A stretch of 64,000 nucleotides of DNA from Petrimonas sp. (GTDB lineage Bacteria; Bacteroidota; Bacteroidia; Bacteroidales; Dysgonomonadaceae): contig DUNG01000029.1 of the NCBI GenBank assembly GCA_012839475.1, positions 26,497-90,496 on the forward strand. The letters are read 5' to 3'. Positions within the stretch are counted from its first letter, which is position 1. Each line of letters begins with the position of its first letter. Below are positions 28,843 to 54,168 of the stretch, in pieces. Both the position numbers and the translations under genes were made by a program. The notes beneath the pieces are model-generated. The model did no database searches and was not told where the DNA came from. It was given only the letters and a program-made list of their open reading frames with translations.

Positions 28843-29088
28843 CACATTTATTCTCACAAGAGGTTCCCCTACTGTACAAAATTACACTTATTATCAACAC
28901 CTCGTATCCAAAAGAAACATTTATCCTCCATTTATATGCAAAAATCCTCCACGTCACCACAAGCCAACTCGCGCTCTCGTGGTAACCACACGGTGCGTTG
29001 GTGACTGTCGATAACGGAAAACCAACGAGTAACACCGCGTAATCCTGGACGTGATACTGATCGTGATTCCGCTCGTGGCGTTTTTCGC

Positions 29089-38900: not shown

Positions 38901-39046
38901 TCCGAGGGATAAGGAATAGACGTGGCCCGCGCATCTTCTTTGTTGACGGCGAAAACCTCCGGATTCTCCCAATCGGGAATACTCTGCGAAAACAGGGCCA
39001 TGCAGGACCAAATAGAAACAAGTAATAAGGCAGCTATTTTTCTCAT
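35942..39046 (-). CDS. GH2 LacZ-type beta-galactosidase
   Basis: WENPEVFAVNKE, NAVRTSHYPQPPLWYKLCDEYGIYLVDEANMESHG, WSLGNEA, IMCEYAHAMGNS, C-terminal Bgal_small_N-like domain. I set the start at ATG 39046 (AGTCGTATGAGAAAA, followed by a signal peptide) rather than the GTG at 39070 given in the ORF track. Confidence 0.9.
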   Translation of the reverse strand: MRKIAALLLVSIWSCMALFSQSIPDWENPEVFAVNKEDARATSIPYPSEELAIEDDYASSPFYHSLNGNWKFYWVPKVADVPEGFYEESYDASGWVEMPVPGNWEFNGYGVPIYVSAGFGFRSSPPRIDREDSPTGAYRHEFTIPDSWEGRRVFLHFEAGTNSMYVWVNGQKVGYTQNSKSPAEFDITPYIRKGKNMLACEVHKFSDGSYLEDQDMWRLGGINRNVYLYSTDQSRLLDFFAHPDLDKNYRNGRFSVEVTVKNYASQRQNHSVEVSLLDKSGKKVFSRRASANVPGGGTTEVALSGNVSNPLKWTAETPHLYTMLITLKNNRGELIEATSHKVGFRKIEITDGQLFINGKKVFFKGVNLHEFNYRTGQVVTREVMMRNLQLMKELNINAVRTSHYPQPPLWYKLCDEYGIYLVDEANMESHGLGYGPDNVANFPEWHAQHMDRVIRLVERDKNHPSVIFWSLGNEASNGKAFFDMYDWAKARDSSRPVQYEQAYQIDRNSDIICHMYPSWENMKRDAVKDLGRPYIMCEYAHAMGNSMGNFQEYWDLMRSSKNMQGGFIWEWYNHGYPAHDEQGRFYWAYGGDLKGYDRRSSGNFCMDGIISPDQNYVPHTYIVKKVYQDILFEASDLENGVITVVNDYKFTDLTPESHSYKWVLLKNGEAFAEGSFNLSLKADSRKEVKLNLPAITKEEGVEYYLQLFAYSNRETELLPAGFEVAKGEFALGHGEYFTAVKREGTLSVEQGEGRTVVNAGGLSYEFATRDGQGLISMQQKGQNVFRELPSLNFWRALTDNEYGERMQYSARVWESAGYNTLYSYKGSRETADGFIAEYEVKPRGIEAKVHLTYTVNRDGSLTVSACYTALSDDLPEMVRFGMMMTLPVNYDRFTWYGRGPGESYVDRKDDAFMGVWSGKVGEQAFAYYRPQETGNKMDVRWLTLENENGNVIRVEGAQPLSVSATHNKPEDLDPGVTKKQQHASDVLPRNEVVLCVDLFQRGVGGLHSWGAKPLDAYRFMDKEYAYSYTISVNP

Positions 39047-39203
39047 ACGACTGTTATTTTCACGTTTCACCTGTTGAAACGTGTGATTATTGATAATTCA
39101 TCCAACCTCAGCTCCCAAGTCGCCCAACCAATGAATAGGCTTATCCCATCAAGGGACTTGCGTAACGCGACAGTGGAGCTGTCTACAAAGCTAACAAAAT
39201 AAT

Positions 39204-39236
39204 TTAAAAACGGCAACAACCTAGTGCTGCCGTTTA
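39204..39236 (-). terminator. Rho-independent terminator after GH43 (39269-40774)
   Basis: The minus strand reads AAACGGCAGCACTAGGTTGTTGCCGTTTTTAAATT, with stem AAACGGCA / TGCCGTTT followed by a T-run. Confidence 0.7.
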
Positions 39237-39268
39237 CACGTTAATAATTGAACTGAACTCAATTACCC

Positions 39269-40774
39269 TTACTCTACCCGTTTACCCCACAACGAGCGGC
39301 CATTGCGATCCAACCCGGAAAGCAGAACGGTTTGAACCTGGTTTTCCCAGTCGTGCCCTGTAAAGACGATCACATCCTCCATGGTTTCATCACCAATAGA
39401 CAAGGTAAGTGACTGTTTCGCTTCATCGAAGTGCCAAAAACCATCGTCACCGGCAGTTCCATCTTCAAGTAGTTCCACCATGAACGAGCGGTTCCACTCT
39501 GCCTCGTTTAAACTTCCCTCGCCCCACAATACCTGTCCCGCTTCAAGGCGACGTTCATGCACGGACTCCGCGATCCGGATTAACTCCCATTTTCCGGGAA
39601 TCAGCTCCTTTCCCACCTGATATCTCTCCTCACCGGCAAAGCGTTGCGGCGAGGCGACGGGCCACCCGTCGGGTGTGAAAAACAGCTCTCTCACGTGCAG
39701 CACCATCAGGTGGTTACCCGGCGATAAACGGCCCTGGTGCACCATAAAGTACCTGCCATCGTCCCTGGCCAGCACCCCACAATGTCCTGTACCAGCCCAC
39801 CCGGGATGGTTTGCGAACTTGTAAGGAGCCACTATTACGGGAAAATTGTTGGTGGTATCGCTTAGGTTCTTGCCGAAAAAATCGCGAAAAGGTCCCTCCG
39901 GCTTATCGGATCGCCCAACGCGCACGTTGTAGGTGGTCATCAGCGGATCATACGAAACAAACAGGTAATACTCTTTCCGTTCGGGGTTATAGATGATTTC
40001 GGGCGCTTCCAGGTTATCCTTCCGGTAATTGGCCCGCCTCGCTATTAAATGACCCAGGTCGCCTTTTTCCTTTGTCAAACCGGTTGCGGGGTCAAGCTCC
40101 ACGCAATACAAGCCGCCAAAATAGGAGCCGTAATGCATCCATAGCTTCCCGTTGTCCACATCCTCGATAACACTGGGGTCTATAGCGTTCATCGGGGTAT
40201 CGTTACTAGATTTCACCACCGCCCCCTTTTGTACCCAGGGACCCTCTGGCGAATCGGATTCCGCCAACCCTATCCAAGATGTTTTTTTCCCGAAAGCCGA
40301 TACGCTGAAGTAAAGCCGGTACACGTCGCCCTGCTTCATCACGTAGGGCGCCCAAATGTTGGTGGCCCCTCTTCCCTCGTTACGGGAGCGAACCCACTCG
40401 ACGGCCTCCTCCGGTATCTCGGGGAAGGCCCACCCCACGAACTCCCAGTTAACAAGATCTAGCGACTTTCTTACCTGAATGTACCTAAGGGGCACATTTT
40501 TAGCTTTGGCCTCCTCCCTGTTTTCCGCGAAAATAGCGTCAGTGGAATAGAGGTAGTAATAGTCACCAAATTTTTTAATCGCGGGATCATGCACGTTATA
40601 GGTTCCCCATTCCTTGTAATGCTCCATGGATGAGAGGTGAGTGTAATCGTCGACCCATGGGTTGGTCACCTCCTCAAAAATCGGGTACGGCTGCTTTTGC
40701 TTGCAGGAACACGCTACCAAGGAGAGGACAATGGAAACGAAGAGGCACAGGGGAGAACAAGTGTAATTTTTCAT
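39269..40774 (-). CDS. GH43 endo-alpha-1,5-L-arabinanase-like lipoprotein with C-terminal domain
   Basis: Lipobox LVAC. YNVHDPAIKKFGDYYYLYSTD, NIWAPYVM, NAIDPSV, GSYFGGLY, LEAPEIIY. Confidence 0.8.
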   Translation of the reverse strand: MKNYTCSPLCLFVSIVLSLVACSCKQKQPYPIFEEVTNPWVDDYTHLSSMEHYKEWGTYNVHDPAIKKFGDYYYLYSTDAIFAENREEAKAKNVPLRYIQVRKSLDLVNWEFVGWAFPEIPEEAVEWVRSRNEGRGATNIWAPYVMKQGDVYRLYFSVSAFGKKTSWIGLAESDSPEGPWVQKGAVVKSSNDTPMNAIDPSVIEDVDNGKLWMHYGSYFGGLYCVELDPATGLTKEKGDLGHLIARRANYRKDNLEAPEIIYNPERKEYYLFVSYDPLMTTYNVRVGRSDKPEGPFRDFFGKNLSDTTNNFPVIVAPYKFANHPGWAGTGHCGVLARDDGRYFMVHQGRLSPGNHLMVLHVRELFFTPDGWPVASPQRFAGEERYQVGKELIPGKWELIRIAESVHERRLEAGQVLWGEGSLNEAEWNRSFMVELLEDGTAGDDGFWHFDEAKQSLTLSIGDETMEDVIVFTGHDWENQVQTVLLSGLDRNGRSLWGKRVE

Positions 40775-40811
40775 ACAATTTTTAACTTTTTTACATTTCA
40801 GTGTATGGAAC
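40775..40811 (-). promoter_or_regulatory. Conserved pre-start module (instance 3, upstream of GH43 39269-40774)
   Basis: The minus strand reads GTTCCATACACTGAAATGTAAAAAAGTTAAAAATTGT followed by ATG. The motif starts 37 nt before the ATG. Confidence 0.5.
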
Positions 40812-40964
40812 TATTTCGTCAAGCCAAACGAGCAGAAGACAAGTTCACTTGGATTATGCCGTGGCGAGAAATAGTCTATTTTAATGAACTATTTCGTCAA
40901 GCCAAACGAGCAGAAGACAAGTTCACTTGGATTATGCCGTGGCGAGAAATAGTCTAACTTTAGT
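40808..40964 (+). repeat. Tandem direct repeat, 78 + 79 bp, repeat family R (second locus)
   Basis: The 71-nt core GAACTATTTCGTCAAGCCAAACGAGCAGAAGACAAGTTCACTTGGATTATGCCGTGGCGAGAAATAGTCT is repeated identically starting at 40808 and 40886. It has 6 mismatches in 71 nt against the 2081 locus. Both arrays end in TAACTTTAGTGAA. Confidence 0.97.
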
Positions 40965-40988
40965 GAACCTTTAATGATTACCTACTGA

Positions 40989-40996
40989 CAAACATA
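40989..40996 (-). promoter_or_regulatory. -7 promoter box TATGTTTG (TAnnTTTG) for a leftward transcript towards GH43
   Basis: Exact match to the Bacteroidota sigma-A -7 consensus TAnnTTTG on the minus strand. There is no TTTG -33 element; site A occupies that position. Confidence 0.5.
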
Positions 40997-41016
40997 ACAC
41001 TATTTTTTAAAAAAAA

Positions 41017-41048
41017 GGTGGAAAAACGAACACGGAAGGTGGACAAAA
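41017..41048 (-). promoter_or_regulatory. Candidate HTCS (AraC-type) operator, site A: two GGTGGA/TCCACC hexamers 21 bp apart
   Basis: The plus strand reads GGTGGAAAAACGAACACGGAAGGTGGACAAAA. On the minus strand the proximal TCCACC is followed by exactly 20 nt and then TATGTTTG (40996-40989). Confidence 0.45.
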
Positions 41049-41102
41049 ATGCCCCTCCAAAAAACCGTCCATTTTTTAGCCTGTTTAATGCAATAATTGG
41101 GT

Positions 41103-41110
41103 TACTTTTG
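41103..41110 (+). promoter_or_regulatory. -7 box TACTTTTG, candidate promoter of HTCS no. 2
   Basis: TAnnTTTG match, 20 nt upstream of the ATG at 41130. Confidence 0.45.
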
Positions 41111-41129
41111 TCATATCGAGTGAATAATT

Positions 41130-44100
41130 ATGAGACGCGCTGTTTTTTATTTAATGACCATCCTTCTACTCCATTCCATCGGCTCAAGGGCTCAAAAAGT
41201 ATCCCGTGACAGCTATGGCATACGCCTTATAACGATGGATGATGGATTGATGCACAACTACATAGACGACATCTACAAGGACGACACCGGCTTTCTTTGG
41301 TTTTCAACAGGGGGTGGACTATCCCGCTACGACGGCCACACCTTGCTCCATTACACCATGAACACGACACCAGTGGCGTTGAAAGGGAACTTCATCCACA
41401 AGGTTTGTGAAGATGATTTCAATCGATTGTGGATCGCCTCGGAAGGTGGATTGGATATCCTGCATTTGATCGACAACCGGAAGACAGACTTGTTTACTGA
41501 CATCGACTCGCTTCAATGGCCTTTCCTGTACAACCCGGTCATCAATATCGCGAAAGATGTGAAAGGCGATATCTGGCTGTATTCCAGCCATATTTACAAG
41601 ATTTGTCTCAACGGTGACGGTTCGATTCGGGGCATATTTAAAACCGATGAAAACCTTCAATCTGAGCTCTTCGTGGCGCTGACAGACGTTGATAACGACG
41701 GGAACGTTTGGGCGGGCTTCCAAAATGAAATCTACAAGCTGCTCCCATCGGGTGAGAACCGACTTGAAGCCTTTCCTGTCTCAGATAAACTGAGGTTCGA
41801 AACGAAAACGATGGTCATGAAATTCCTACTGAAAGAGAACGAAGTTTGGATGGGAACAGACCGCGGGCTGTATCGGTATTACAGGAATGAAGACGCACTC
41901 AAGGTGTATAGGAGTCAAGAGGATAACCCACGCTCCTTGTCTCACGATTACGTGTCTGAACTGGTTGTAACCGATAGCAAGCAATTGATTGCCGGCACGC
42001 TAAAAGGGATCAACATCTACAACCCTTCCAGCGATGACTTTGACCCGATAACCCAAGAGAACTCATCAGAAGGACTTGGATTAAACAGCAACTTTATTAA
42101 TTCCATGTTGTTTGATGATGGGATCCTTTGGGTGGGAACCGAGACGGGCGGCATCAATAAGCTTGCCCCTAAAAACGCCTTCATCAAGAACTACGTCTAC
42201 AACGAAAGTGAGCCGAACAGCATCTCCAGGAACCCGGTAAACGTCATTTTTGAAGACGAGGCGGAGAACCTCTGGATTGGAACGGTAGAGGGTGGGTTAA
42301 ACCGAAAAGGAAAAGGAGCAGACACCTTTGTCCACTTCACAACCTCATCACCGGCAAGGCTGAGCCACAACTCGGTAAGCGCCTTGAGCATGGACGCCAA
42401 TCAGCGCTTGTGGGTCGGCACATGGGGGTTTGGCGTTACCCTGCTCGACATGACCCATCCCGAAAAGTTGCCTGTAGCATACATTCATTCAACACAATAC
42501 CCCCAGCTGCCTATCAATTTCATAGGGGCGCTCACGTACGATAAGCGCAACAACGGCATGTGGATCGGGACCAACCAAGGACTCTTCTTTTACGACATAG
42601 CCAGAGACAGCCTTCAAGTACCTTTCAGCGATCAGCAATCAAATCATATCAACGGCATTATCGGATCGACCATCGACAGCGATAACCGGCTATGGTTGGG
42701 GTGTGCGGAAGGGGTATACGTCATTGACTTGCATCGACAACAGCAGCCGTTTTTTTCCTACGTACACCTGAAGTACAAGCTCGACAACCCCCAATCGAAG
42801 CTGGTAGATAGGATTACCAGCATACTCGAAGATACCGATGGCACGTTATGGCTAGGGAGTGACGGTTTTGGCATATACAAGCGGGTGACACGGGAAGATG
42901 GATCGCAAGTTTTCGAGGCGTACACCACCTCTAACGGGCTGGCTAACAACAATGTCAAGGGATTGCTGGAGGACGACCTGGGCAACCTTTGGATAAGCAC
43001 CCTTAACGGTCTCTCTTGTTATGACAAAACAAACAACCGCTTCACCAATTACTACAAGGAAGATGGGCTTGTATCTAACCAATTTTACTGGAACGCCTAC
43101 TGCAAAGCGAAGAGCGGTTTGCTCTACTTTGGGACCCTGGATGGTTTAGTGGAGGTCAATCCGGAAATAATCAAGCGACACGATACGCGCTACCGGGTCA
43201 CGTTAACCGATTTCCACGTGAACAATGAAAAAGCATACCCTGGCAAGGTACTTAAAAAAGATATCTCGGTAACCGAAGAGATCCTACTGCATGAAAAAAC
43301 GAGGTCGTTCTCGATCGATTTCTCCGCGCTCAATTACCGTACCACAAGCAACTATGTATACGCGTACCGCCTTATTGGCTACGACGACAACTGGATAGAG
43401 CTTGATAAAAACGGGCATTCGGCTACCTACATGAACCTTCCTGCCGGCAATTACCAGTTCCAAGTTAAATATGTACCCAAAAGTCAAGTAGACGCGGGCG
43501 AGGTCACCCAAATCACAATCAAGGTAAAACCCCATTTCTACAAAACCGGGTGGTTCCTATCCCTGGTTATCATCCTGCTAATCCTAGCCATGACCCTGCT
43601 GTACCACTGGCGCATCAGGGCATACGAACACCAACAGAAAGCCCTGGAAAAAGTAGTGGAGGAGCGTACAAAGGAGATTAACAAGCAGAAAAACACGCTT
43701 ACGGTTCAAAAAAACGAACTTTCACAACGAAACCGTCAATTAAAAACGCGGAACGAGAAGATAACCCAACAGAAGGAGCAGCTGATTAAAATGTCCCGAA
43801 AAATGCGGAAAATGACCGCTGAACGCCTCGACTTTTTCACCAACGTTTCGCATGAACTTCGTACCCCGATCACCTTAATTATTGGTCCTATAGAAAGGGC
43901 GCTTAAAATAAGCACCAACCCGTACGTTATTGAACAGCTGAGTTTCGCCGAAAGGAACTCCAAGTACCTGCTTACGCTAATTAACCAACTGATGGATTTT
44001 CGCAAGATTGAATCCAACAGGCTTGAGATAGCCTACACAAGGGGTAACTTCGTGGATTTCATGGAGTCCATCATCTCCTCGTTCGATTTTCAAACCAACG

Positions 44101-45377
44101 ACAGGGAAATCCGATTGCTCAAGAGGTACCACCTGGTAAACCCCGTTTTCCATTACGATGAAGAAGGCTTACGCAAGGTAATGATCAACCTGATTTCCAA
44201 CGCGATCAAATACACGCCAAACGGAGGAGAAATTATCGTCTATGTGAAGTCGTTCAAAGATGCCACGACCAATGAGAACAAGCTCTACCTCTCCGTTAAA
44301 GACAACGGCGTGGGTATTCCCGAAGAGGAGAAAGAAAAAGTTTTCAGGCGTTTTTACCAGTCCAAAAACCACCCGAGGTATCCCGTAAATGGACAAAGCG
44401 GTACCGGCATCGGGCTCTATTTAACCAAGCAGATCGTGGAAACCCTTGGGGGAACAATTGGAGTTAAAAACAACCGCAAGGCGGGCGTCTCTTTCCGCGT
44501 CATCCTACCCCTCCACGAGGAGAACCCACACTCCCTCACCCCGAAAACGGCTACAGGACATGAGCCGGTCAAGAACGTGCTCAAAGAGCAAAACCTAAAG
44601 GAGTGGCAAAAAGAGAGGCTTACCTTCCTTGTGGTGGAAGACAACCGGGACATGTGCCGCTACATCTGCTCGGTGCTATCGCCCTATTACAACACGCTGG
44701 AGGCTAACAACGGGGTGGAAGCGCTTGAGATCCTGGAACACTACCACGTGGATTTCATCATCAGCGATTTAATGATGCCCGAAATGGATGGGTTACAACT
44801 GTCGAAAAAGGTGAAAGAAAACTTCACCCTATCGCACATTCCCTTTCTAATGCTCACCGCTAAAACATCGGAAAAGACACGTACCGACAGCTACCGGTTG
44901 GGAGTGGACTCATATATCGTGAAACCCTTCGATGAGAAGATGTTAGTCGCCCGCGTTCGGAACATGCTGGAAACACGAGAGAGGTACCAGCGGCGGTTTG
45001 TTAACGACATGTCGGTCGACACGTTGGAGATAAGCGAAGAGTCGAACGATAAAAAATTCATGGAACGGGTAATGAGGGTGATAGAAGCCAACTTTCAAAA
45101 CTCCTACTTCGAGGTGAGCGACTTCGCGGATAGCGTGGGAGTGAGTAAATCCTTATTGAACAAGAAGCTAAAAGCGCTAAGCGGTAAATCCACGGGCGAG
45201 TTCATCAGGATATACAGGCTGAACCTCGCGTACAAGATCATCCTGAAAAACAGGAACACGAAAAACAAAAACGTGGCCGACATCGCGTACGAGGTCGGAT
45301 TCAACGATCCGAAATACTTCACCCGATGCTTCAGCAAGCAGTTCAACATCACGCCAAGCAAGCTGTTAACCGGCTAA
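41130..45377 (+). CDS. Hybrid two-component system sensor kinase/response regulator with AraC-type HTH (HTCS no. 2)
   Basis: Signal peptide, ~780 aa propeller-type sensor, TM helix (WFLSLVIILLILAMTLL), coiled coil. HisKA (FFTNVSHELRTP), HATPase (GTGIGLYL), receiver (DFIISDLMMPEMDG), AraC HTH (YFTRCFSKQFNITPS). Confidence 0.92.
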   Translation: MRRAVFYLMTILLLHSIGSRAQKVSRDSYGIRLITMDDGLMHNYIDDIYKDDTGFLWFSTGGGLSRYDGHTLLHYTMNTTPVALKGNFIHKVCEDDFNRLWIASEGGLDILHLIDNRKTDLFTDIDSLQWPFLYNPVINIAKDVKGDIWLYSSHIYKICLNGDGSIRGIFKTDENLQSELFVALTDVDNDGNVWAGFQNEIYKLLPSGENRLEAFPVSDKLRFETKTMVMKFLLKENEVWMGTDRGLYRYYRNEDALKVYRSQEDNPRSLSHDYVSELVVTDSKQLIAGTLKGINIYNPSSDDFDPITQENSSEGLGLNSNFINSMLFDDGILWVGTETGGINKLAPKNAFIKNYVYNESEPNSISRNPVNVIFEDEAENLWIGTVEGGLNRKGKGADTFVHFTTSSPARLSHNSVSALSMDANQRLWVGTWGFGVTLLDMTHPEKLPVAYIHSTQYPQLPINFIGALTYDKRNNGMWIGTNQGLFFYDIARDSLQVPFSDQQSNHINGIIGSTIDSDNRLWLGCAEGVYVIDLHRQQQPFFSYVHLKYKLDNPQSKLVDRITSILEDTDGTLWLGSDGFGIYKRVTREDGSQVFEAYTTSNGLANNNVKGLLEDDLGNLWISTLNGLSCYDKTNNRFTNYYKEDGLVSNQFYWNAYCKAKSGLLYFGTLDGLVEVNPEIIKRHDTRYRVTLTDFHVNNEKAYPGKVLKKDISVTEEILLHEKTRSFSIDFSALNYRTTSNYVYAYRLIGYDDNWIELDKNGHSATYMNLPAGNYQFQVKYVPKSQVDAGEVTQITIKVKPHFYKTGWFLSLVIILLILAMTLLYHWRIRAYEHQQKALEKVVEERTKEINKQKNTLTVQKNELSQRNRQLKTRNEKITQQKEQLIKMSRKMRKMTAERLDFFTNVSHELRTPITLIIGPIERALKISTNPYVIEQLSFAERNSKYLLTLINQLMDFRKIESNRLEIAYTRGNFVDFMESIISSFDFQTNDREIRLLKRYHLVNPVFHYDEEGLRKVMINLISNAIKYTPNGGEIIVYVKSFKDATTNENKLYLSVKDNGVGIPEEEKEKVFRRFYQSKNHPRYPVNGQSGTGIGLYLTKQIVETLGGTIGVKNNRKAGVSFRVILPLHEENPHSLTPKTATGHEPVKNVLKEQNLKEWQKERLTFLVVEDNRDMCRYICSVLSPYYNTLEANNGVEALEILEHYHVDFIISDLMMPEMDGLQLSKKVKENFTLSHIPFLMLTAKTSEKTRTDSYRLGVDSYIVKPFDEKMLVARVRNMLETRERYQRRFVNDMSVDTLEISEESNDKKFMERVMRVIEANFQNSYFEVSDFADSVGVSKSLLNKKLKALSGKSTGEFIRIYRLNLAYKIILKNRNTKNKNVADIAYEVGFNDPKYFTRCFSKQFNITPSKLLTG

Positions 45378-45448
45378 AAGGAAGCAAATTGGCGCGCCAA
45401 ACCGTGTACCTGTGAAACAGGTAATAAAATGGTTAAAAAACGAGGGGT

Positions 45449-45484
45449 GCTCGTTTCTCCACCATGTTTCACCTTTTGTCCACC
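45449..45484 (+). promoter_or_regulatory. Candidate HTCS operator, site B: mirror copy of site A
   Basis: The plus strand reads GCTCGTTTCTCCACCATGTTTCACCTTTTGTCCACC, with TCCACC at 45458 and 45479 (21-bp phase). The half-sites match site A: GGTGGA[A/G]AAACGA[A/G]CAC and GGTGGACAAAA. Confidence 0.45.
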
Positions 45485-45504
45485 CATGTTAACGTAACTA
45501 TTCA

Positions 45505-45512
45505 AATCTTTG
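45505..45512 (+). promoter_or_regulatory. -7-like box AATCTTTG, 20 nt downstream of site B
   Basis: 7 of 8 positions match the shape of TAnnTTTG (first T replaced by A). The 20-nt spacing from the proximal TCCACC is the same as at site A. Confidence 0.35.
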
Positions 45513-45637
45513 TAGTTATTAAAGCGTGCGGTTTATCATGACCCCGTTTCGTTAGCTTACCTGGAAACGGTTGCCTTTCGGTAAATCATCGCGCTAAACC
45601 GTGTATAGGGAATAATAAATAGGTATCGTATTATGTA

Positions 45638-47368
45638 ATGAAAAATAAAAACAGTATGAGAATGACAAAAATAACGTGGCGCACATGGCTCGTAACCATC
45701 TGGGCAATAGTGACCCTGGCTGGGTGCGAGGGACTGGAAACGTACAGCATCGATGCGCCGATGGACCTGCAAAGCAGGATCGATGCCATTGCGGCCGAAA
45801 AGGCCAAGATATCAACGGGCGACACCGTCTACATTGATATCGTCTCGGCGATAATTGGCGCTGAAGATAACAGTTCCGGCTGGTGGGGGGCCTTCTCAGA
45901 TTACTTCGTTATCCCCGCGAACAAGCTCCTGGTCTTGGAGTTCGTGAACCACTCCTCGGGCGTGAACAACTGGAACAACTGGAATCTCGTGGTCACGAAC
46001 GAAGTGGCAGACCGTGATGATACCGACTACAAGGAGTACTTCGTGCTGCGTTCAGACGCTTACGGGTGGGGAGGCGGTATGGTGAACCAAGGGTATCCCT
46101 ATGATGCCGCCCTAATAGCCCATAACTACCCCGACCTGAATGGGGACGGCGATATATGGGACGACTTCAAGACAACCATGCAGGGGGCCCGCGTCACCCT
46201 CAAGGTGGACCACTCGGCCACCGGGAACGTGTTTGTAACGGCCACGGCCATCGGCACGAACGGTGTGGAACTGATACTAACGTACCAACAACCCGTATCG
46301 GCCACGGCCAATATCGTGGCCTTCTTGGTGACGGATGCGAGTTATTTCGAAATGAAAAAGGCCTACCTGATCCCTTCCAAGGTCACGGTCGTGGAGGATG
46401 TTGAACCCGTTTCTATTGTCGTGGAAGGGGCACCCGAGTTCGTTGAGTTTGGCAACGAGGACTTCTGGGGAGATGCGACGGCAACCGTTACGTATGCCGA
46501 CGGCTCTTCAGAAACGGTTGGGTTTGATGAACTCTCCTTCACGGTCATCCCCGACATGTCTACCCTCGGTAAAAAAACCGTGATAGTAGCCTACGGCAAG
46601 AGCAAGCAAGGTGCTTACGGGCCGCCCGTTTCCACTTTCTACACGCTGGAGGTCACCAACCCCGTGGTCAGCCTGGAGGTCACCACTCTACCAAACATCA
46701 CCGAGTATTATTTCTTCAGCGGCGACTCCATCATTTTCAACACGAGGGGTCTCGTGGTAACCGGAACCTACTCCGATGGAACGACTGGCGTGGTGCCTAA
46801 CGCCACCCTCCAGTTCAGCAAGATCCCGGCACTGGAGGGAGTGCAAAGCGCGAAGATTTCGTACGTGGGAAGCACGAGCACGGTTAGCGTTACCTGCCCA
46901 GTTACCCTTGTAAAGGGGAGCGCTCAAGTGGGTAAAAATGACTTCTCCACCGGCTGGTGGTCTGAATTCTCTGACGAGTACGCCGTAGCGACGGGGACCA
47001 GCCAAACGCTTACCATGTATTGCTACTCCAACAACCTAAACAATTACCACAGCCCTTGCGTTATCCTTCGCAAGGCCGATTTGACGGAGTACGCCGTGGT
47101 GCGCATGGACAACTTCGGGTGGGGCACCGGATACTCCACGGCCACCCTATCGTCTGACTGGAATTTTGACACGTTCGCTTCAAATATAAACGGCTCCAAG
47201 GTAGTTATCACCGTCACTAACCATGGTAACGATACTGCCGACGTGGTATATACCGTTACGCACGTTAACGGTGAGACGCATTTCCAAAAGTACGAAGGCA
47301 TTACGGTGGATAGCGACGACCTGAACTTCGCACTAGTCATCGAGGGAGCTTACGTAGTAATCATTTAA
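45638..47368 (+). CDS. Surface lipoprotein of unknown family, built as repeated domain A, two Ig-like repeats, then a second copy of domain A
   Basis: Lipobox VTLAGC (Cys30). Two copies of one domain (aa ~79-235 and ~437-576) share SxGWWxxFSD, NN[WY], EYxVxRxDxxGWGxG and a V-T-V-x-H/N-x-G strand. The central TVTYADGSSETV / GTYSDGTTGVV segments are Ig-like repeats. Confidence 0.75.
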   Translation: MKNKNSMRMTKITWRTWLVTIWAIVTLAGCEGLETYSIDAPMDLQSRIDAIAAEKAKISTGDTVYIDIVSAIIGAEDNSSGWWGAFSDYFVIPANKLLVLEFVNHSSGVNNWNNWNLVVTNEVADRDDTDYKEYFVLRSDAYGWGGGMVNQGYPYDAALIAHNYPDLNGDGDIWDDFKTTMQGARVTLKVDHSATGNVFVTATAIGTNGVELILTYQQPVSATANIVAFLVTDASYFEMKKAYLIPSKVTVVEDVEPVSIVVEGAPEFVEFGNEDFWGDATATVTYADGSSETVGFDELSFTVIPDMSTLGKKTVIVAYGKSKQGAYGPPVSTFYTLEVTNPVVSLEVTTLPNITEYYFFSGDSIIFNTRGLVVTGTYSDGTTGVVPNATLQFSKIPALEGVQSAKISYVGSTSTVSVTCPVTLVKGSAQVGKNDFSTGWWSEFSDEYAVATGTSQTLTMYCYSNNLNNYHSPCVILRKADLTEYAVVRMDNFGWGTGYSTATLSSDWNFDTFASNINGSKVVITVTNHGNDTADVVYTVTHVNGETHFQKYEGITVDSDDLNFALVIEGAYVVII

Positions 47369-47378
47369 CGAAACAAAG

Positions 47379-47453
47379 ATGAAATATCGTATGAAACGAG
47401 CATGTAAATCATTTACACCCATGACAATGATTGAAGCGAGTTCCATACACTGA
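47379..47453 (+). other. 24-codon upstream ORF between the lipoprotein gene and SusC (coding status unproven)
   Basis: ATGAAATATCGTATGAAACGA... encodes MKYRMKRACKSFTPMTMIEASSIH. Its stop TGA lies inside the conserved leader motif (CCATACAC-TGA-AATG), and its first 9 nt equal the first 9 nt of the SusC gene (ATGAAATAT). Confidence 0.25.
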
Positions 47454-47477
47454 AATGTAAAAGAATAAATTAATCGT
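47440..47477 (+). promoter_or_regulatory. Conserved pre-start module (instance 4, upstream of SusC 47478)
   Basis: GTTCCATACACTGAAATGTAAAAGAATAAATTAATCGT followed by ATG. The motif starts 38 nt before the ATG, and its first 23 nt are identical to instance 3. Confidence 0.5.
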
Positions 47478-50400
47478 ATGAAATATCCATTAACAATCCT
47501 ACTGGGATGCCTGCTCTTAACAACGGCAACCCACGCGAAAACCGGCATGAACGCCCATCCGGCACAAGTGACGCAAGAGCGCGAGATAACGGTAAAAGGT
47601 ACAGTTACAGACGAATTGGGCGAACCGCTTCCCGGTGCAACCGTGCAACAAAAGGGAACCGCGCTGGGAACCGTGACCAACTTTGACGGAACCTTCTCCC
47701 TTTCTGTTCCGGCAGAGGCTACCCTCGTCTTTTCGTTTGTTGGGTACACGAGCCTTGAAATGAACGTGGAAGGGAAAACGGAACTGGGCAACATCATGTT
47801 GATACCGGAAACCACGGAATTAGACCAATTGGTAGTCATCGGCTACGGCACGCAACGAAAAGTAGACCTCACGGGATCGGTCGCCATTATCAACACGGAA
47901 GAGCTGAGAAAGGTCTCTCACTCCAACATTTCAACCATGCTCGAGGGGAAGGTTCCCGGCGTTCAAATCACGACCGACGGCCAGCCCGGTGCCAACCCCA
48001 CGGTTCGTATCCGCGGCTTCGGGTCGTTTGGAAGTACCGCACCACTGTACGTGATAGATGGCGTACCCATGGGGACGACCATCCGTGACTTCTCACCCAA
48101 CGACATTGAGACGATTCAGGTGCTTAAAGACGCTTCCGCCGCGGCCATTTACGGCTCCCGCGCGGCCAACGGCGTCGTGATCATCACCACGAAACAGGGG
48201 GCAAAGAATAAGCCCATGAAGATAGATTACAGTGGCTACTTTGGTACCGACCGGGTTCAAAAAGGCGTTTACGATGTGATGGACGCTCATCAATACGGCC
48301 TCTACACCACCATGGCTTACCACAACAGCAACATGGAGGCACCCGCCGGGTACGACCCTGCCAGTGAGAAATACATCGACCCCAACGAGGTAAACACCAA
48401 CTGGTTTAACGAGTCGTTCAAAACGGGTATCCGACAGAATCACAACGTCAACCTGTCGGGAGGAGGCAACAACAACACTTACAACATCGGGTTAGACTAT
48501 TACAATCAGGAGGGAACCATGATGGGTGCCGGTCCAAACTTCGAGCGGTACACGGCACGTGTGAACAACACTATGGACGTTAAATTCGTAAAGATTCAAA
48601 CAAACGTCGTGTATAGCCACAGCGACCAAGACAACATGGCCCTTAGCAACGCGAACGAGTACGTGCAGGGACTGTATGGTGCCCAATACCCCGTGATGGC
48701 TTCCGCACTGCTACTGCCCCCAACCATCAAGGCGTATGACGAGTCCACCTGGATACTGGATGACAAAATCCCAGCGGCATCGCAATACACGTATGACTCT
48801 TACGGCTTCGGCACCTATTACGACGATGTTCATGGTGACTTGCGGGTTACCAACGTGCTGCTCACCAACTCTCTTTTAGAAAGGAACACGGTGGTTGACC
48901 GGCTAGTGGCCTCGGGCTCGGTTAATGTGGACCTCATGGACATGGTGGGCCGCAAACAAGATAATCACACGCTCGACTATAAACTTAACTTGTCGTACAG
49001 CAAAACCTTTGCCAAGGATTTCACGTTCGTGCCCGCATTTATCCAGAGCACGACAAACTACCTATCCAAAAGCAACGAGACGCTATCACAAGGCTACCGC
49101 AATTACAGCGATGCACTAGTCGAGAACCTCCTGACGTACGACGGCAGAGTTGGGCGAAATCACGTGAACGTGGTCGTGGGACAAACCTTCCAGCGGGAAC
49201 TCTACCACACGCTCACCGGAAAAGGGGTAAACCTACCTGAGCCTTACTACTTGCAAGTAAACAACGCGGAGGAAACCTCCTCGAACAGCTATGAAAGTGA
49301 ACACGTGCTGGCATCCTATATTGGCCGCTTGAATTACAACTTCGACGAGAAATATCTCCTCTCGGCCACGGTACGTCGGGACGGCTCAAGCCGCCTCTCA
49401 TCCAACGACCGCTGGGGATGGTTCCCCTCGGTATCGGCCGGGTGGCGCATCGAACGGGAAGAGTTCTTTAACGTGGATCCAGCCACCATCAACCTGCTGA
49501 AAGTTAGAGGCAGCTACGGGGAGCTTGGAAACGAGAACATTGGTGAATACCAATACATGGATGTGATGGCAAGGGGCAACTACACCTACAGCTTTGGGAA
49601 TAACAAGGTAACCGGCTCGGCCATATCGAACTACGTCAACACCGCCATCCGATGGGAAAAGAAGAAGATGCTCGATGTTGGCATCGACCTCGGGATGTTT
49701 AACAACCAACTGGAATTCACGGTCGATTGGTACAAATCCATATCGGAAGACCTGCTCTATAGCGTGGCAGTACCGGCCAACGCGGGGGCAACCAACGCAA
49801 CGGTCACGATGAACGCGGCCACGATGGAAAACTCGGGATTCGAGTACCAGCTGACCTACCGCAACCGCCACAACGCCCTCAAGTACGATATCTCCGCTAA
49901 CCTATCCACCTTAACGAACAAAGTGACAAAGCTCGGGGTTTCGGGTGAACCGCGTACCGACGGATTCTGCCGCACGGAAGTGGGTCGTGAAGTGGGCTCG
50001 TTCTACGGGTATGTCTACGAGGGTATCTTCCAATCGCAAGCAGAGATCGACAACCGCGTCAACGCTGAGGGGTTGTACATCAATCAGCCGGGAGCTCAAC
50101 CGGGCGACGTGGCGTACGCCGACATCAACAACGACGGGGAGATTACCAACGAAGACCGGACCTACCTGGGTAGCGGAATACCAAAAGTTCACTTTGGATT
50201 GAGCGCACGCGTGGAATGGAAAGGTTTCGACTTGAGCCTATCGACCTACGGAGCTGCCGGGTTCAAGGTGGTCGATTTCGTTGACATCACCTTACGAAGC
50301 TCGTACGGGATGCTGAACAAAAGCGTTGAAATGCTGAACGCGTGGACACCGGAGAACGTGAATACCAACGTACCCCGCGTAGCGTATAAATCCACCGGAT

Positions 50401-50675
50401 CCATTACCAACGATATGTTCAGCAAACGTTACCTGCAAAACGGGAACTACCTGAAGATCGCCAACGTCTCGCTAGGCTACAACTTCCCCGACAACTGGTT
50501 TAAAGGTCACGTGAACAACGTACGCGTGTACGTTTCGGGACAAAATTTAGCCACGCTCAGCAAATACCGGGGATACAACATCGATTTTGCCGGAGGTACG
50601 TTCACCCCGGGCTATAACTACTCTTCGTACCCAACCCCTAGAACCTTCATGGTTGGTGCAAACTTTTCATTCTAA
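47478..50675 (+). CDS. SusC/RagA-family TonB-dependent transporter
   Basis: Signal peptide. Carboxypeptidase-regulatory-like N-terminal domain (ITVKGTVTDELGEPLPGATVQQKGT..TNFDGTFSL), plug (VVIGYGTQRK; DIETIQVLKDASAAAIYGSRAANGVVIITTK). Barrel ends in ...VGANFSF. Confidence 0.93.
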   Translation: MKYPLTILLGCLLLTTATHAKTGMNAHPAQVTQEREITVKGTVTDELGEPLPGATVQQKGTALGTVTNFDGTFSLSVPAEATLVFSFVGYTSLEMNVEGKTELGNIMLIPETTELDQLVVIGYGTQRKVDLTGSVAIINTEELRKVSHSNISTMLEGKVPGVQITTDGQPGANPTVRIRGFGSFGSTAPLYVIDGVPMGTTIRDFSPNDIETIQVLKDASAAAIYGSRAANGVVIITTKQGAKNKPMKIDYSGYFGTDRVQKGVYDVMDAHQYGLYTTMAYHNSNMEAPAGYDPASEKYIDPNEVNTNWFNESFKTGIRQNHNVNLSGGGNNNTYNIGLDYYNQEGTMMGAGPNFERYTARVNNTMDVKFVKIQTNVVYSHSDQDNMALSNANEYVQGLYGAQYPVMASALLLPPTIKAYDESTWILDDKIPAASQYTYDSYGFGTYYDDVHGDLRVTNVLLTNSLLERNTVVDRLVASGSVNVDLMDMVGRKQDNHTLDYKLNLSYSKTFAKDFTFVPAFIQSTTNYLSKSNETLSQGYRNYSDALVENLLTYDGRVGRNHVNVVVGQTFQRELYHTLTGKGVNLPEPYYLQVNNAEETSSNSYESEHVLASYIGRLNYNFDEKYLLSATVRRDGSSRLSSNDRWGWFPSVSAGWRIEREEFFNVDPATINLLKVRGSYGELGNENIGEYQYMDVMARGNYTYSFGNNKVTGSAISNYVNTAIRWEKKKMLDVGIDLGMFNNQLEFTVDWYKSISEDLLYSVAVPANAGATNATVTMNAATMENSGFEYQLTYRNRHNALKYDISANLSTLTNKVTKLGVSGEPRTDGFCRTEVGREVGSFYGYVYEGIFQSQAEIDNRVNAEGLYINQPGAQPGDVAYADINNDGEITNEDRTYLGSGIPKVHFGLSARVEWKGFDLSLSTYGAAGFKVVDFVDITLRSSYGMLNKSVEMLNAWTPENVNTNVPRVAYKSTGSITNDMFSKRYLQNGNYLKIANVSLGYNFPDNWFKGHVNNVRVYVSGQNLATLSKYRGYNIDFAGGTFTPGYNYSSYPTPRTFMVGANFSF

Positions 50676-50694
50676 CAACCTAAACAATTTCCGC

Positions 50695-52449
50695 ATGAAA
50701 CGTTATAACATACTCTTTATACTAGGGCTCCTCGTGACAGGCTTTACAGCTTGCAACGATGCACTCAACGTGGTAAACCCAAACAATCAGACGACCTACG
50801 ATTTCGGCAACACGGAATCTGAACTTAACGAGGCCATCATCGCGTGTTATAACCGCATCCGGTTAGAAGGCACCTTCGCCAGGGTGGGTTACACGATGGA
50901 CGCCGTGCGTGGCGATGAGGTATGGAACTCATCACAACAGTGGTACCTGGAGTACGACAACCTGAACTCACCGGGTACCATCGAGATAGGCGACCAATGG
51001 ATATGGCGCGACTGGTATCATGTAGTAAACCGCACGAACTTCGTGCTGTCGAAAGTAGACGAAGTAAAGATGTCGACTGACTCGTATAACCAGATCGCGG
51101 GGCAGGCACTCTTCCTCAGGTCGTTAGCTTATTACCACCTCTCTACCTATTACCAAACGGTACCCCTGATCACCGACTACGCGTCCTATTCTGACATCAA
51201 CACCATGTACGCGTCTAACAACACGCAAGACGAGGTGTTCGACCAAATAGAACTGGACTTGACGAAAGCGATGGAGATGCTTCCCTCACGCGACAAAGGG
51301 GGTGAGTGGGCACAGGGACGTGCCACATGCGGCGCTGCTGCCGGCTACATGGCACGTGCGCTGATGTTCCGCCATAAATTTGAAGAAGCGTACACGGTGC
51401 TGAAAGATATCATCGCCGGTAAGTACGGCCGTTACGAGCTCATGGCCGATTATGGCGACAACTTTAAAGAGGGTTCCGCTTATGAAAACAACCCGGAGAG
51501 CCTCTTTGAGGTGCAGTTCATGGACTACGGCACGGGAGGTACCGACGAAGAGTGGACACCGGTAAACATCAGCTCTCAAGCCACCCAGGGTCACGCGGTA
51601 GAGAGTAATTACGCGTCCCAAGAGCTGGGAAGCTGGGGCGACCTTGCTGGCTCACCTTGGCTGTACAACCTTTTCAGAAAAGAGAACTCGACCGATGGGC
51701 GCCTCGATCCCCGCTTGTATTGGACACTGGTCACATACGAAGAGGAGTACAGCACCTACACCGGTCAGAAAACAGCCGCTTACCCAAATGGCGACCCTCG
51801 GTGTAACATTATCTACCAAAATGAAATAACCAAAACGCCCCTATCGAACAACGCCCAAGGAGGAATATCCATCGCGAAGTTCACCAACGCGAGGAACAAC
51901 ATTTACAGCAGTATCACCAACGGGCTGCATTGCGGTATCAACCTCCGCCTTATGCGGTATAGCGACGTCTTGCTACGCGCGGCAGAGTGTGAGAACGAGA
52001 TCAACGGACCCACGCAGACGGCCATCGATTACATCAACCAAGTACGCAGGCGCGTTGCACTGGAAGACCTCAAGGTTGCGGATTTCCCAACCGCCGACGC
52101 GCTGTTCGAGCAGATCGCGAACGTTGAACGTCCTAAAGAGTTCGGGTGCGAAAACGGGCGCGGGATCGATTTAATCCGCTGGGGTTTCTTCTACAGTGAA
52201 GATCGCCTGAACCAATTGATCGAGCATGGCTATTACAGGCTCGATGGCACGGCGTCGACCGAGGAGCTCACCGCGGAAACGGCTACGGCCTCCTCCTTCC
52301 AATACTATTACAAGGGGCACGAATATTTCCCAATCCATCAATCCACCTTGAACGCCAACCCCAACCTCGTGGGCAACTCGGCAAACAAGAACGAAGATAA
52401 CGGTCCGGCTTTCAGGGAGAAATGGAACATACGTCCCGTTGTGAAATAG
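50695..52449 (+). CDS. SusD/RagB-family lipoprotein
   Basis: The lipoprotein signal starts at Met37 of the track ORF (MKRYNILFILGLLVTGFTAC). RYSDVLLRAAECENE segment typical of SusD. The upstream extension would overlap SusC. Confidence 0.9.
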   Translation: MKRYNILFILGLLVTGFTACNDALNVVNPNNQTTYDFGNTESELNEAIIACYNRIRLEGTFARVGYTMDAVRGDEVWNSSQQWYLEYDNLNSPGTIEIGDQWIWRDWYHVVNRTNFVLSKVDEVKMSTDSYNQIAGQALFLRSLAYYHLSTYYQTVPLITDYASYSDINTMYASNNTQDEVFDQIELDLTKAMEMLPSRDKGGEWAQGRATCGAAAGYMARALMFRHKFEEAYTVLKDIIAGKYGRYELMADYGDNFKEGSAYENNPESLFEVQFMDYGTGGTDEEWTPVNISSQATQGHAVESNYASQELGSWGDLAGSPWLYNLFRKENSTDGRLDPRLYWTLVTYEEEYSTYTGQKTAAYPNGDPRCNIIYQNEITKTPLSNNAQGGISIAKFTNARNNIYSSITNGLHCGINLRLMRYSDVLLRAAECENEINGPTQTAIDYINQVRRRVALEDLKVADFPTADALFEQIANVERPKEFGCENGRGIDLIRWGFFYSEDRLNQLIEHGYYRLDGTASTEELTAETATASSFQYYYKGHEYFPIHQSTLNANPNLVGNSANKNEDNGPAFREKWNIRPVVK

Positions 52450-52497: not shown

Positions 52498-54168
52498 ATG
52501 AGACAAACAAAGGCATCCATTTTTTTCATTGGGTTAATCGTCCTGTTGATAGCGGGGTGCGAAAAGGAAGTTATCGACCTTAACGGGGAAAACGATAAAC
52601 CACAACCCGAAAAGAAATGGAGCCCCCCGGGCTACGCCGACGACTACTCGCCCATCGCCTCCTGGTCTAAGAGGAACCAATGGAACCTGGCCAACGTGCA
52701 CGACCCTACGGTAGCTTACTACAACGGGTATTACTACATGTACGGTACCGACGCCTCCTACGGGAACGAGCACGAGGGACATGGCCACTTTCAAGGAAAG
52801 CGTTCAACCGACCTAGTTAATTGGGAGTGGGTGGGCGGCCCGTTTTACGAGACCCCATCATGGGTTGCCGATTCGCTGAACGCCATCCGCTCGCGTATGG
52901 GTCTCAACGCGATTCCCGAGAACCAAATACGTTACGGCCACTGGGCACCGGTTGTACGTCGGATCAACGTGGGGGGGCAAGAGATCTTGCGCATGTACTA
53001 CTCCATCATTATCGACAACTACATTAAAACCGGCAAAGCCAATACCACAACCAATTTTGATGGAAGTTGGACGGAACGCGCATTCATCGGCATGTGCGAA
53101 TCAACCGACCCCGCCGGGGCCAATTGGATCGATAAAGGTTTCGTCACAACCTCCTCTTCCGACCGGGGCAAAGATTTCAGCCGTAGCAGTCCATCGGACT
53201 GGAACGGCTACTTCTATTACAACGCCATCGACCCTACCTACATCGTAACGCCCGAGGGGAAACACTTCCTGGCATACGGTTCGTGGCATAGCGGCTTCGC
53301 CCTGATGGAAGTAGATGGAGTCACCGGTAAGCCACGTGACGAGCTTGGTGAACCCTATGCCGATAACGCGGCCGAGCTCACGAAGCGGTATGGTGTGAGA
53401 ATCGGGACACGCGCATCCTCATCTCGTTGGCAAGCCAGCGAGGCACCCGAAATAATCTACAAAAATGGGTATTACTACCTGTTTATGGCTTACGATGCCC
53501 TGGACGTACCCTACAACACGCGCGTGGTAAGGAGTTCCCGTATTGAGGGACCTTACCTTGACATCACCGGGCGCAACTTCACCGATGGACGAGGTGATGC
53601 CTACCCTATCGTCACCCACCCCTACAAATTCAACCATAGCCACGGGTGGGTAGGCTTATCACATTGCGCCATCTTTCAAAAGGAAGGTAGCAACGAATGG
53701 TTCTACGCGTCGCAAGGGCGACTACCCGTTAACGTGGGTGGAAACGCCTACTCCAACGCCATCATGATGGGGCACGTGCGTCGCCTTGTCTGGTGCCCGG
53801 CATCAGCAGATGAACCAGACAACTTATGGCCCATCGCGTTACCCGAACGGTATGGTGCCGTACCTGATTACGGCACAATAACCAAGGATTCACTGGTAGG
53901 AACGTGGGAACATATTAAACTTGAATATAGCTACGGGCAACAAAACCGAGCCACCTCCCTAACCCTACACGCGAACGGCACCCTATCGGGAACACTCTCG
54001 GGCAACTGGAGCTATAACGAGACGAAAAAACAACTCACGTTGGGCAACGTGATCGTGTGCGTTGAACGAGAAGTCGATTGGGAAACCACACCCCGTCGTG
54101 CAACGCTGGTATACGCGGGCACCGAAAAAAACTTGAACGCAACCTACTGGGGTAAAAAGTCGAAGTGA
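52498..54168 (+). CDS. GH43 arabinanase-like lipoprotein with C-terminal domain
   Basis: Lipobox LIAGC. NVHDPTVAYYNGYYYMYGTD, HWAPVV, NAIDPTYIV, YGSWHSGF, SEAPEIIYKNGYYYLFMAYD. Confidence 0.8.
   Translation: MRQTKASIFFIGLIVLLIAGCEKEVIDLNGENDKPQPEKKWSPPGYADDYSPIASWSKRNQWNLANVHDPTVAYYNGYYYMYGTDASYGNEHEGHGHFQGKRSTDLVNWEWVGGPFYETPSWVADSLNAIRSRMGLNAIPENQIRYGHWAPVVRRINVGGQEILRMYYSIIIDNYIKTGKANTTTNFDGSWTERAFIGMCESTDPAGANWIDKGFVTTSSSDRGKDFSRSSPSDWNGYFYYNAIDPTYIVTPEGKHFLAYGSWHSGFALMEVDGVTGKPRDELGEPYADNAAELTKRYGVRIGTRASSSRWQASEAPEIIYKNGYYYLFMAYDALDVPYNTRVVRSSRIEGPYLDITGRNFTDGRGDAYPIVTHPYKFNHSHGWVGLSHCAIFQKEGSNEWFYASQGRLPVNVGGNAYSNAIMMGHVRRLVWCPASADEPDNLWPIALPERYGAVPDYGTITKDSLVGTWEHIKLEYSYGQQNRATSLTLHANGTLSGTLSGNWSYNETKKQLTLGNVIVCVEREVDWETTPRRATLVYAGTEKNLNATYWGKKSK

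Follow-up and report, generated by a model that had tools for sequence, protein, structure and literature searches.

Putative operators of a predicted arabinan-sensing hybrid two-component regulator in Petrimonas sp. match the published HTCS_Ara-1 motif

In Escherichia coli, AraC at araI1-araI2 of araBAD and MarA, SoxS and Rob at class II promoters use two direct-repeat half-sites of ~17 bp that lie 21 bp apart; at araI1-araI2, the proximal half-site overlaps the -35 region, and a domain that contains two helix-turn-helix (HTH) motifs recognises each half-site. Here, we describe two sites of TCCACC direct repeats, A and B, which flank the gene of a hybrid two-component system (HTCS) regulator in a 64,000-nucleotide stretch of DNA from Petrimonas sp. 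(the whole stretch is hereafter called the window; GenBank assembly GCA_012839475.1, contig DUNG01000029.1, positions 26,497 to 90,496 of the forward strand). Both sites are very likely operators of this adjacent, predicted arabinan-sensing HTCS, with the window protein as the putative binding partner.

The closest described system is that of Bacteroides thetaiotaomicron. In the predictions of Ravcheev et al. (2013; PMC3878776), which cover 16 B. thetaiotaomicron HTCSs, every motif is a direct repeat, the spacing averages 21 bp, and the repeats are taken to be bound by dimers on one DNA face. In the alignment for HTCS_Ara-1 (BT0366), the motif takes the form TGTCCACC-N-(T/G)CCACCT, followed after ~20 nt by TAnnTTTG, upstream of BT0367 (RegPrecise/PMC3878776), and the HTCS_Ara-1 regulon comprises the operons BT0360-65 and BT0367-69 (RegPrecise). 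In electrophoretic mobility shift assays (EMSA), a purified BT0366 fragment with the response regulator plus the DNA-binding domain (DBD) shifted the BT0365 promoter and the BT0366-BT0367 intergenic fragment, each of which contains a predicted site, and did not shift the araM promoter (Schwalm et al. 2016; PMC5061871). Arabinan induction of BT0367 (>1,500-fold) was lost in a BT0366 mutant, while that of BT0364 (>1,500-fold) was dramatically decreased, not abolished (PMC5061871). Chromatin immunoprecipitation sequencing (ChIP-seq) located BT0366 regulatory domains at their own polysaccharide utilization locus (PUL) (Lynch & Sonnenburg 2012; PMC3404733). The literature searched contained no hexamer-level footprint of BT0366 and no transcription start sites (TSSs) mapped under arabinan conditions. 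For BT4124, DNase footprinting revealed tandem half-sites in the bt4114 and bt4108 promoters, with hypersensitive positions ~21-22 bp apart (JBC 2026; PMC13292587). With 16 B. thetaiotaomicron motifs predicted in 2013 and one footprinted in 2026, an earlier sequence-only reading of this DNA, which had called HTCS targets largely undefined, overstated the case.

The two repeat sites and the adjacent regulator

When both strands of the window were scanned, the exact repeat TCCACC-N15-TCCACC occurred only twice, at 41017-41043 on the minus strand (site A) and at 45458-45484 on the plus strand (site B), where the sequence-only reading had placed it with N15/N20 spacing. The repeats are not attributable to chance, since the mean expectation was 0.01 exact matches and none of 100 dinucleotide shuffles reached two. 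Allowing one mismatch added only two window matches (positions 608 and 20029). Read on the minus strand, site A is TTTTTGTCCACC (41049-41038)-N15-TCCACC (41022-41017)-N20-TATGTTTG (40996-40989); on the plus strand, site B is CGTTTCTCCACC-N15-TCCACC-N20-AATCTTTG, with CGTTTC directly before the distal hexamer. The elements are as follows.

41038-41049, minus strand: distal half-site of site A, TTTTTGTCCACC, with the hexamer at 41038-41043; orthologues carry TTT[A/G]TCCACC at the same place
41017-41033, minus strand: proximal extended half-site of site A, GTGTTCGTTTTTCCACC, with the hexamer at 41017-41022
40989-40996, minus strand: -7 box of site A, TATGTTTG, predicted for the leftward GH43 promoter, 20 nt 3' of the proximal hexamer
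45447-45463, plus strand: distal extended half-site of site B, GTGCTCGTTTCTCCACC, with the hexamer at 45458-45463
45474-45484, plus strand: proximal half-site of site B, TTTTGTCCACC, with the hexamer at 45479-45484
45505-45512, plus strand: -7 box of site B, AATCTTTG, predicted for the rightward lipoprotein-SusC-SusD-GH43 operon, 20 nt 3' of the proximal hexamer

Both sites are oriented outward from the HTCS open reading frame (ORF), A toward a GH43 gene and B toward a lipoprotein-SusC-SusD-GH43 operon, and the ORF and Pfam map agrees with the sequence-only reading on this point. The 11-mer GGTGGACAAAA is common to both sites with 11/11 identities, as had been noted; the longer shared half-site, GGTGGA[A/G]AAACGA[A/G]CAC, had been credited with 17 of 19 matches and is in fact 17 nt long with 15/17 identities. 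The half-site types are swapped between the two sites, with GTGYTCGTTTYTCCACC promoter-proximal in A and promoter-distal in B. An Rfam scan by e-value of positions 39000-48000 gave no known RNA element, and a scan for sigma-70 promoters and terminators called nothing at either site, the sigma-70 model not being applicable to Bacteroidetes.

The regulator lies between the two sites, and the genes on either side form two divergent units.

41130-45377, plus strand: HTCS regulator of 1415 aa (Pfam: Reg_prop and Y_Y_Y periplasmic sensor, HisKA, HATPase_c, Response_reg, HTH_18/AraC)
41103-41110, plus strand: predicted -7 box of the HTCS gene itself, TACTTTTG, ~20 nt before the ATG and kept in the orthologous loci L081 and L085
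39269-40774, minus strand: GH43 (Pfam), first gene of the leftward unit and BT0367 homologue, 60% identical to the divergent GH43 of L085
45638-54168, plus strand: rightward unit, counterpart of BT0365-BT0360 (Pfam), with the same gene order in orthologous loci
45638-47368, plus strand: Big_3 lipoprotein (Pfam)
47478-50675, plus strand: SusC-like protein (Pfam)
50587-52449, plus strand: SusD-like protein (Pfam)
52498-54168, plus strand: GH43 of the rightward unit (Pfam)

Over 1417 aligned residues, the regulator shares 51% identity with the cluster holding WP_008760653/EFI05811 (Bacteroides sp. 1_1_14, B. thetaiotaomicron-group), and its closest named relative is a 72%-identical protein of 'Bacteroidetes bacterium GWD2_45_23'. 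Its DBD is 69% identical to the BT0366-type cluster, with VSKSLLNKKL in the first HTH and VGFNDPKYFTRCF in the second unchanged and the clade-specific TKNKN insertion present. The phospho-accepting H908, the receiver D1213 and a SHIP latch at 1235 are also kept, the latter being a mark of HTCSs whose DNA binding is held off until phosphorylation (PMC11253607). Judging from these identities, the regulator is a diverged member of the BT0366/HTCS_Ara-1 clade. The L085 locus corresponds to the BT0366 locus itself, because it contains the BT0367 promoter sequence given in the supplement of Ravcheev et al. (2013). The window further encodes GH51 and GH127 arabinofuranosidases, araA, araB (FGGY family), araD, an SSF transporter, GH97, GH2 and further GH43 enzymes, a gene set that corresponds to BT0348-BT0369, the arabinan/arabinose locus of B. 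thetaiotaomicron; the locus described here is a diverged version of that arabinan PUL. Based on GH43, GH51, GH127, araABD and the B. thetaiotaomicron data, the flanking units are predicted to be induced by arabinan or arabino-oligosaccharides.

Conservation and anatomy of the sites

Flanks of orthologous genes were taken by exact-protein look-ups; a first peptide-seeded contig search had yielded only two true orthologues (L001 and L006), because its seeds favoured generic kinase and receiver motifs. A site of the B type with N15 and N20 spacing was present in 11/11 distinct loci with a downstream PUL (lipoprotein/SusC) operon, and a site of the A type in 9/9 loci with a divergent GH43 or equivalent flank. 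Flanks facing co-directional or unrelated genes had no site, namely the upstream flank in L006, L087, L088 and L091 and the downstream flank in L092 and in L089, where it consists of an araM-like epimerase plus SSF. An unanchored MAFFT alignment covered the intergenic DNA downstream of 10 orthologous HTCS genes, whose regulators are 51-74% identical to that of the window; its mean column identity was 40%. Invariance was confined to T.TCCAC, TTTGTCCACC, the -7 box TTTG and two isolated positions, which are T113 and A129 in the sequence from the window. The invariant TTTGTCCACC lies at the proximal half-site of site B (10/10 regions); at the distal half-site, TGCTC[A/G]TTTCTCCAC was kept across the closer orthologues. 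For site A, the spacer block GTGTTC[G/A]T was kept in L081, L083, L085 (B. thetaiotaomicron-like) and L090. L081, whose regulator is the 72%-identical orthologue, additionally carries a third, isolated half-site (TTATCCACC, ~3955-3965, read on the minus strand) between the HTCS -7 box and site A, with no counterpart in the window.

A position weight matrix built only from 13 sites in other genomes ranked the two window sites first and second (scores of 36.6 and 35.4), followed by a third match at 13.7, with a background of -57 +/- 13.5. This third match, TCCTCC-N15-TCCTCC preceded by CATTTA at 28918-28954 on the plus strand, sits in the GH97/GH51-araD-araA-araB intergenic region, and site A of L092 uses the same TCCTCC proximal hexamer. 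We did not count it as an operator, because its orientation is away from the single promoter of that region and a -7 box is missing at N20, a rejection that fits BT0366 not binding the araM promoter in B. thetaiotaomicron.

The motif-bearing loci share a distinctive DBD with GVSKSL.NKKL, the TKNKN insertion and VGFNDPKYFTRCF. Neither this DBD type nor the motif was found in ~35 paralogous Bacteroidota HTCS loci with other recognition helices. The second HTCS of the window (6930-10820) is without the BT0366-type DBD and has no TCCACC repeat, its own operator not having been searched for. In a motif-first scan of metagenome contigs, TCCACC-N15-TCCACC-N21-ANNTTTG matched at least 120 loci. Among the AT-rich matches listed, 63/100 were within 600 bp of an HTCS-type gene in an A-like or B-like arrangement (52 of them same-strand and just beyond the 3' end of the gene, the other 11 diverging from its 5' end), and several further listed matches sit one gene from a BT0366-clade HTCS. 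The corresponding figure for the GC-rich, coding-like matches listed was 0/23. Two candidates were set aside. A GC-rich Paenibacillus match inside coding-like sequence (L062) was taken as chance, and a site upstream of a kduI-like gene (L021:3124-3150, plus strand; ATTTCTCCACC-N16-TCCACC, then a TTTG box), with spacing one base longer, was regarded as unrelated or chance or as the related motif of another regulator, the HTCS there being 2.8 kb away, 26% identical and of a different DBD. Overall, the motif was spread over Bacteroidaceae, Dysgonomonadaceae and uncultured Bacteroidales. These comparisons show HTCS_Ara-1, defined on few Bacteroides genomes, as a motif that holds with exact N15/N20 geometry at ~50% regulator identity; arabinan PUL promoters are therefore recognisable by sequence alone in metagenomes.

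The anatomy of the operator was derived from 20 compiled sites. The centre-to-centre distance between half-sites was 21 bp in 20/20, and in the conservation logo both half-sites follow TGnTC[A/G]TTTnTCCACC, that is, a TCCACC core with TTT directly before it and T(G)nTC ~10 bp upstream. Thus described, the half-site appears bipartite and 16-17 bp long, a length and layout that would suit a single AraC/XylS domain whose two HTH motifs read adjacent major grooves; we adopt this two-HTH reading because the AraC/XylS family binds in a MarA-like manner, as discussed for BT4124 (PMC13292587). The distance from the proximal hexamer to the TTTG-ending -7 box (consensus TAnnTTTG; PMC7366714) was N20 in all site B orthologues and N20, or N21 in three, for site A.

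Relative to the TSS mapped for BT_0366 (supplement of Ryan et al. 2020), the last G of the homologous box TAACTTTG lies at -6. The same supplements were searched for the BT0365 and BT0367 TSSs and list only that of BT_0366, because the cultures were grown in rich medium. Extrapolated from BT_0366, this spacing together with N20 therefore assigns -39 to -34 to the proximal hexamer and -60 to -55 to the distal one. This estimate supports an operator abutting the -33 position, as the sequence-only reading had proposed, and the AraC-family activator geometry that it had suggested agrees with the 20 sites, in which direct repeats 21 bp apart place the proximal half-site at the -35 equivalent. Its further statement that the sites replace the usual TTTG went too far: the -33 region has no clear TTTG, and most orthologues have a T-rich or TTG stretch immediately after the proximal hexamer, so the -33 element is abutted and weak, not clearly replaced.

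Regulators of ~1,000 aa that consist of a periplasmic sensor (Reg_prop, Y_Y_Y), a transmembrane segment and an AraC HTH_18 domain, with no HisKA, HATPase or receiver domains, were observed in 32 of the loci L094-L213 among the metagenome matches listed (e.g., L113:643-3633 with the site L113:3812-3866, and L116:6451-9474 with the site L116:9499-9553). Their sites read TTTGTCCACC-N11-TTTGTCCACC-N20/21 and then the -7 box, and are located just past the 3' end of the regulator's gene, upstream of a lipoprotein/SusC operon. L113 encodes a member of a Segatella (Prevotella) copri-group cluster with 22,867 member sequences, a very abundant regulator in this group, whose second HTH (VGFNDPKYFTRCF) does not differ from that of the BT0366 clade. 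It is an evenly balanced question whether the TCCACC-N15-TCCACC operator is, as these genes suggest, not tied to the phosphorelay. If the Segatella proteins bind it, the signal would pass from sensor to DNA directly through the membrane in a one-component, ToxR-like manner; the operator would then be inherited from or shared with the arabinan HTCS clade, and the window locus would represent the two-component version of a dual-format module. A literature search for phosphorelay-less HTCS relatives returned nothing relevant, which does not show that such relatives are undescribed.

Weighing the operator reading

The operator function proposed by the sequence-only reading is backed by the footprint in orthologues, the tracking of the DBD type, the published BT0366 motif and the BT0366 EMSA on both flanks. 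We favour it because the site tracks the BT0366-type DBD and occurs only on PUL-facing flanks. Under this reading, an arabino-oligosaccharide would bind the periplasmic sensor and start an intramolecular His-to-Asp phosphorelay, whereupon phosphorylation would release the latch between receiver and DBD. In the membrane-anchored dimer, two AraC-type DBDs would then bind head-to-tail to half-sites 21 bp apart, i.e., two helical turns on one face of the DNA, the bipartite TGnTC[A/G]TTTnTCCACC presumably offering base-specific contacts to one domain with two helix-turn-helix motifs. With the proximal hexamer spanning about -39 to -34, directly next to position -33 of a sigma-ABfr promoter, the regulator may contact and recruit or stabilise RNA polymerase in a class-II-like fashion. 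Two divergent units would thereby be switched on, the GH43 and following genes on the left and the lipoprotein-SusC-SusD-GH43 operon on the right.

Several points weigh against this interpretation. The BT0366 EMSA and ChIP data are at the level of fragments or regions and do not prove the hexamers as contacts. Of the two -7 boxes proposed earlier, that of site A is a perfect TAnnTTTG, whereas that of site B (AATCTTTG) is without the initial T. In some orthologues, site A has a degenerate proximal hexamer (TCTACC, TCTCCC, TCCTCC). The conservation among orthologues partly reflects shared descent, although the flanking sequence is randomised. The operator as delimited here may be incomplete, because the BT4124 footprint uncovered an extra site missed by computational prediction (PMC13292587). 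Finally, the output of the site A promoter could be modified by its leader, because ~210 nt with a lineage-specific tandem repeat separate that promoter from the GH43 start codon.

Among the alternatives, the best surviving one, still improbable, is that the sites bind the HTCS mainly for autoregulation or repression rather than for class-II activation of the flanking units. In inverted orientation, site A sits ~60 bp upstream of the -7 box that belongs to the HTCS gene, a position from which it could contribute to the positive autoregulation reported for BT0366, whose mRNA rises 15-fold on induction (PMC5061871); site B, being downstream of the HTCS gene, cannot serve the HTCS promoter. Repression has precedents in the association of BT0366 with PULs that it represses (PMC3404733) and in BT4124, a repressor acting from tandem half-sites (PMC13292587), but the window regulator has the consensus SHIP latch typical of phosphorylation-activated HTCSs (PMC11253607). 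A fixed N20-21 distance to an outward -7 box in ~20 sites is what an activator overlapping the -35 equivalent requires, and in the BT0366 mutant induction of BT0367 was lost and that of BT0364 dramatically decreased (PMC5061871), which also argues against a mainly autoregulatory or repressive role. Such a role is possible as an additional function.

We consider it very improbable that the repeats are bound by another regulator, for instance AraR, a repressor of the NrtR family, or Cur/BT4338, a CRP-like global regulator. In B. thetaiotaomicron, the BT0365 promoter is also bound by AraR and needs BT4338 for full activation (PMC5061871), and more than one factor therefore acts at these promoters. 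Published AraR boxes, however, are palindromes of the GTGTA...TACAC type, unlike the TCCACC direct repeat (RegPrecise), and the AraR-like boxes of the window lie at ~28850-28890, in the ara-operon intergenic region, not at sites A and B. Moreover, the motif follows the BT0366-type DBD and adjoins that gene in the metagenome scan, and BT0366 itself shifts both homologous fragments (PMC5061871).

Equally hard to credit is that the repeats are residual ancestry or a generic promoter-upstream element, or that the distal half of site B belongs to an HTCS terminator hairpin (AACGAG-GGGTG-CTCGTT): orthologous promoters are indeed related by descent, and in the window a hairpin of 6-7 bp can arise from the bases upstream of the distal hexamer, but the half-sites are invariant where regulators are 51-74% identical and the mean column identity of intergenic DNA is down to 40%, other window promoters, those of the second HTCS included, do not carry the motif, and the hairpin is neither kept in orthologues, which keep the sequence TGCTC[A/G]TTTCTCCACC, nor called by the terminator scan.

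With the sites read as HTCS operators, the annotation of the locus becomes base-resolved, with two predicted operators, three promoters and one regulon made up of two divergent units. The reading opens no new question, HTCS operators of such architecture having been predicted since 2013 and now being footprinted.

Other elements of the window and comparison with known systems

Two further features of the window are listed here.

40808-40878 and 40886-40956: two identical 71-nt copies with a period of 78, between the -7 box of site A and the GH43 start codon
6930-10820, minus strand: second, paralogous HTCS of 1296 aa, with a DBD 37% identical to that of the first

The 71-nt copies carry short terminal inverted repeats and lengthen the predicted GH43 leader, which folds with z = -3.9, to ~210 nt. 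The repeat was absent from the orthologous loci and all other fetched loci, and in a strain whose HTCS is 98% identical the contig stops within it; it may be a small, lineage-specific duplication or insertion within that leader. Several orthologues share a second conserved block, TGAATC.AT.CAATGA (alignment columns ~311-330), within the 5' leader of the lipoprotein/SusC operon; this block reads TGAATCGATACAATGA in L083 and L087, is poorly conserved in the window (~45595-45620) and could be a leader or regulatory element.

The AraR-like boxes at ~28850-28890 on the minus strand are two in number (GTGTAATTTTGTACAG and GTGTAACTTTGTAAAA), lie upstream of the GH51-araD-araA-araB-transporter operon and resemble the published AraR sites of BT0356 (araM) in B. 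thetaiotaomicron. No araR-like gene was present among the window ORFs scanned, and one was found beside GH43 in the related locus L083. The second HTCS adjoins SusC/SusD, esterase, glucuronyl-esterase and GH31 genes, and this unit is probably a xylan- or hemicellulose-type PUL.

BT4124 is, like the window regulator, an AraC-type HTCS with two half-sites, and binds in a MarA-like mode with two recognition helices per half-site (PMC13292587). It differs in its half-site sequence, in acting as a repressor or fine-tuner, and in having sites that are clustered and further from the start codon.

Compared with AraC at E. coli araBAD, two elements of the araI1-I2-like geometry are present, namely same-face direct repeats two turns apart and a proximal half-site at the -35 equivalent. 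The window promoters, however, are predicted to be of the sigma-ABfr type (-7 TAnnTTTG and -33) rather than -10/-35, and the regulator is a membrane-spanning fusion of sensor kinase and response regulator, which presumably dimerises via its histidine kinase module and not via an arabinose-binding domain. DNA looping to a distal O2-type site is not indicated in the window.

The closest likeness is to HTCS_Ara-1/BT0366. The window sites match the published BT0367, BACCELL_05304 and BACEGG_01542 sites and have the same half-site core (TGTCCACC ... (T/G)CCACC), the same ~21-bp period and the same ~20 nt to a TAnnTTTG box; they occupy the same two positions, before a divergent GH43 and before a downstream operon of a surface glycan-binding protein and SusC/D, with the same neighbouring arabinose genes. 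The differences from the BT0366 locus concern the host, here an uncultured Bacteroidales lineage, and the gene content: the first right-hand gene encodes a Big_3 lipoprotein, whereas BT0365 is a Laminin_G_3 protein, there is one SusC/D pair within the window where B. thetaiotaomicron has two, and the window has extra GH2 and GH43 genes on the left and the two 71-nt repeats in the GH43 leader. Beyond the literature searched are the bipartite 16-17-bp half-site, its invariant distance to the -7 box, and the operator in phosphorelay-less Segatella relatives. The operator itself is not new, because Ravcheev et al. (2013) published the same direct repeat for BT0366; it is a rediscovery of the published HTCS_Ara-1 motif in a diverged, uncultured relative.

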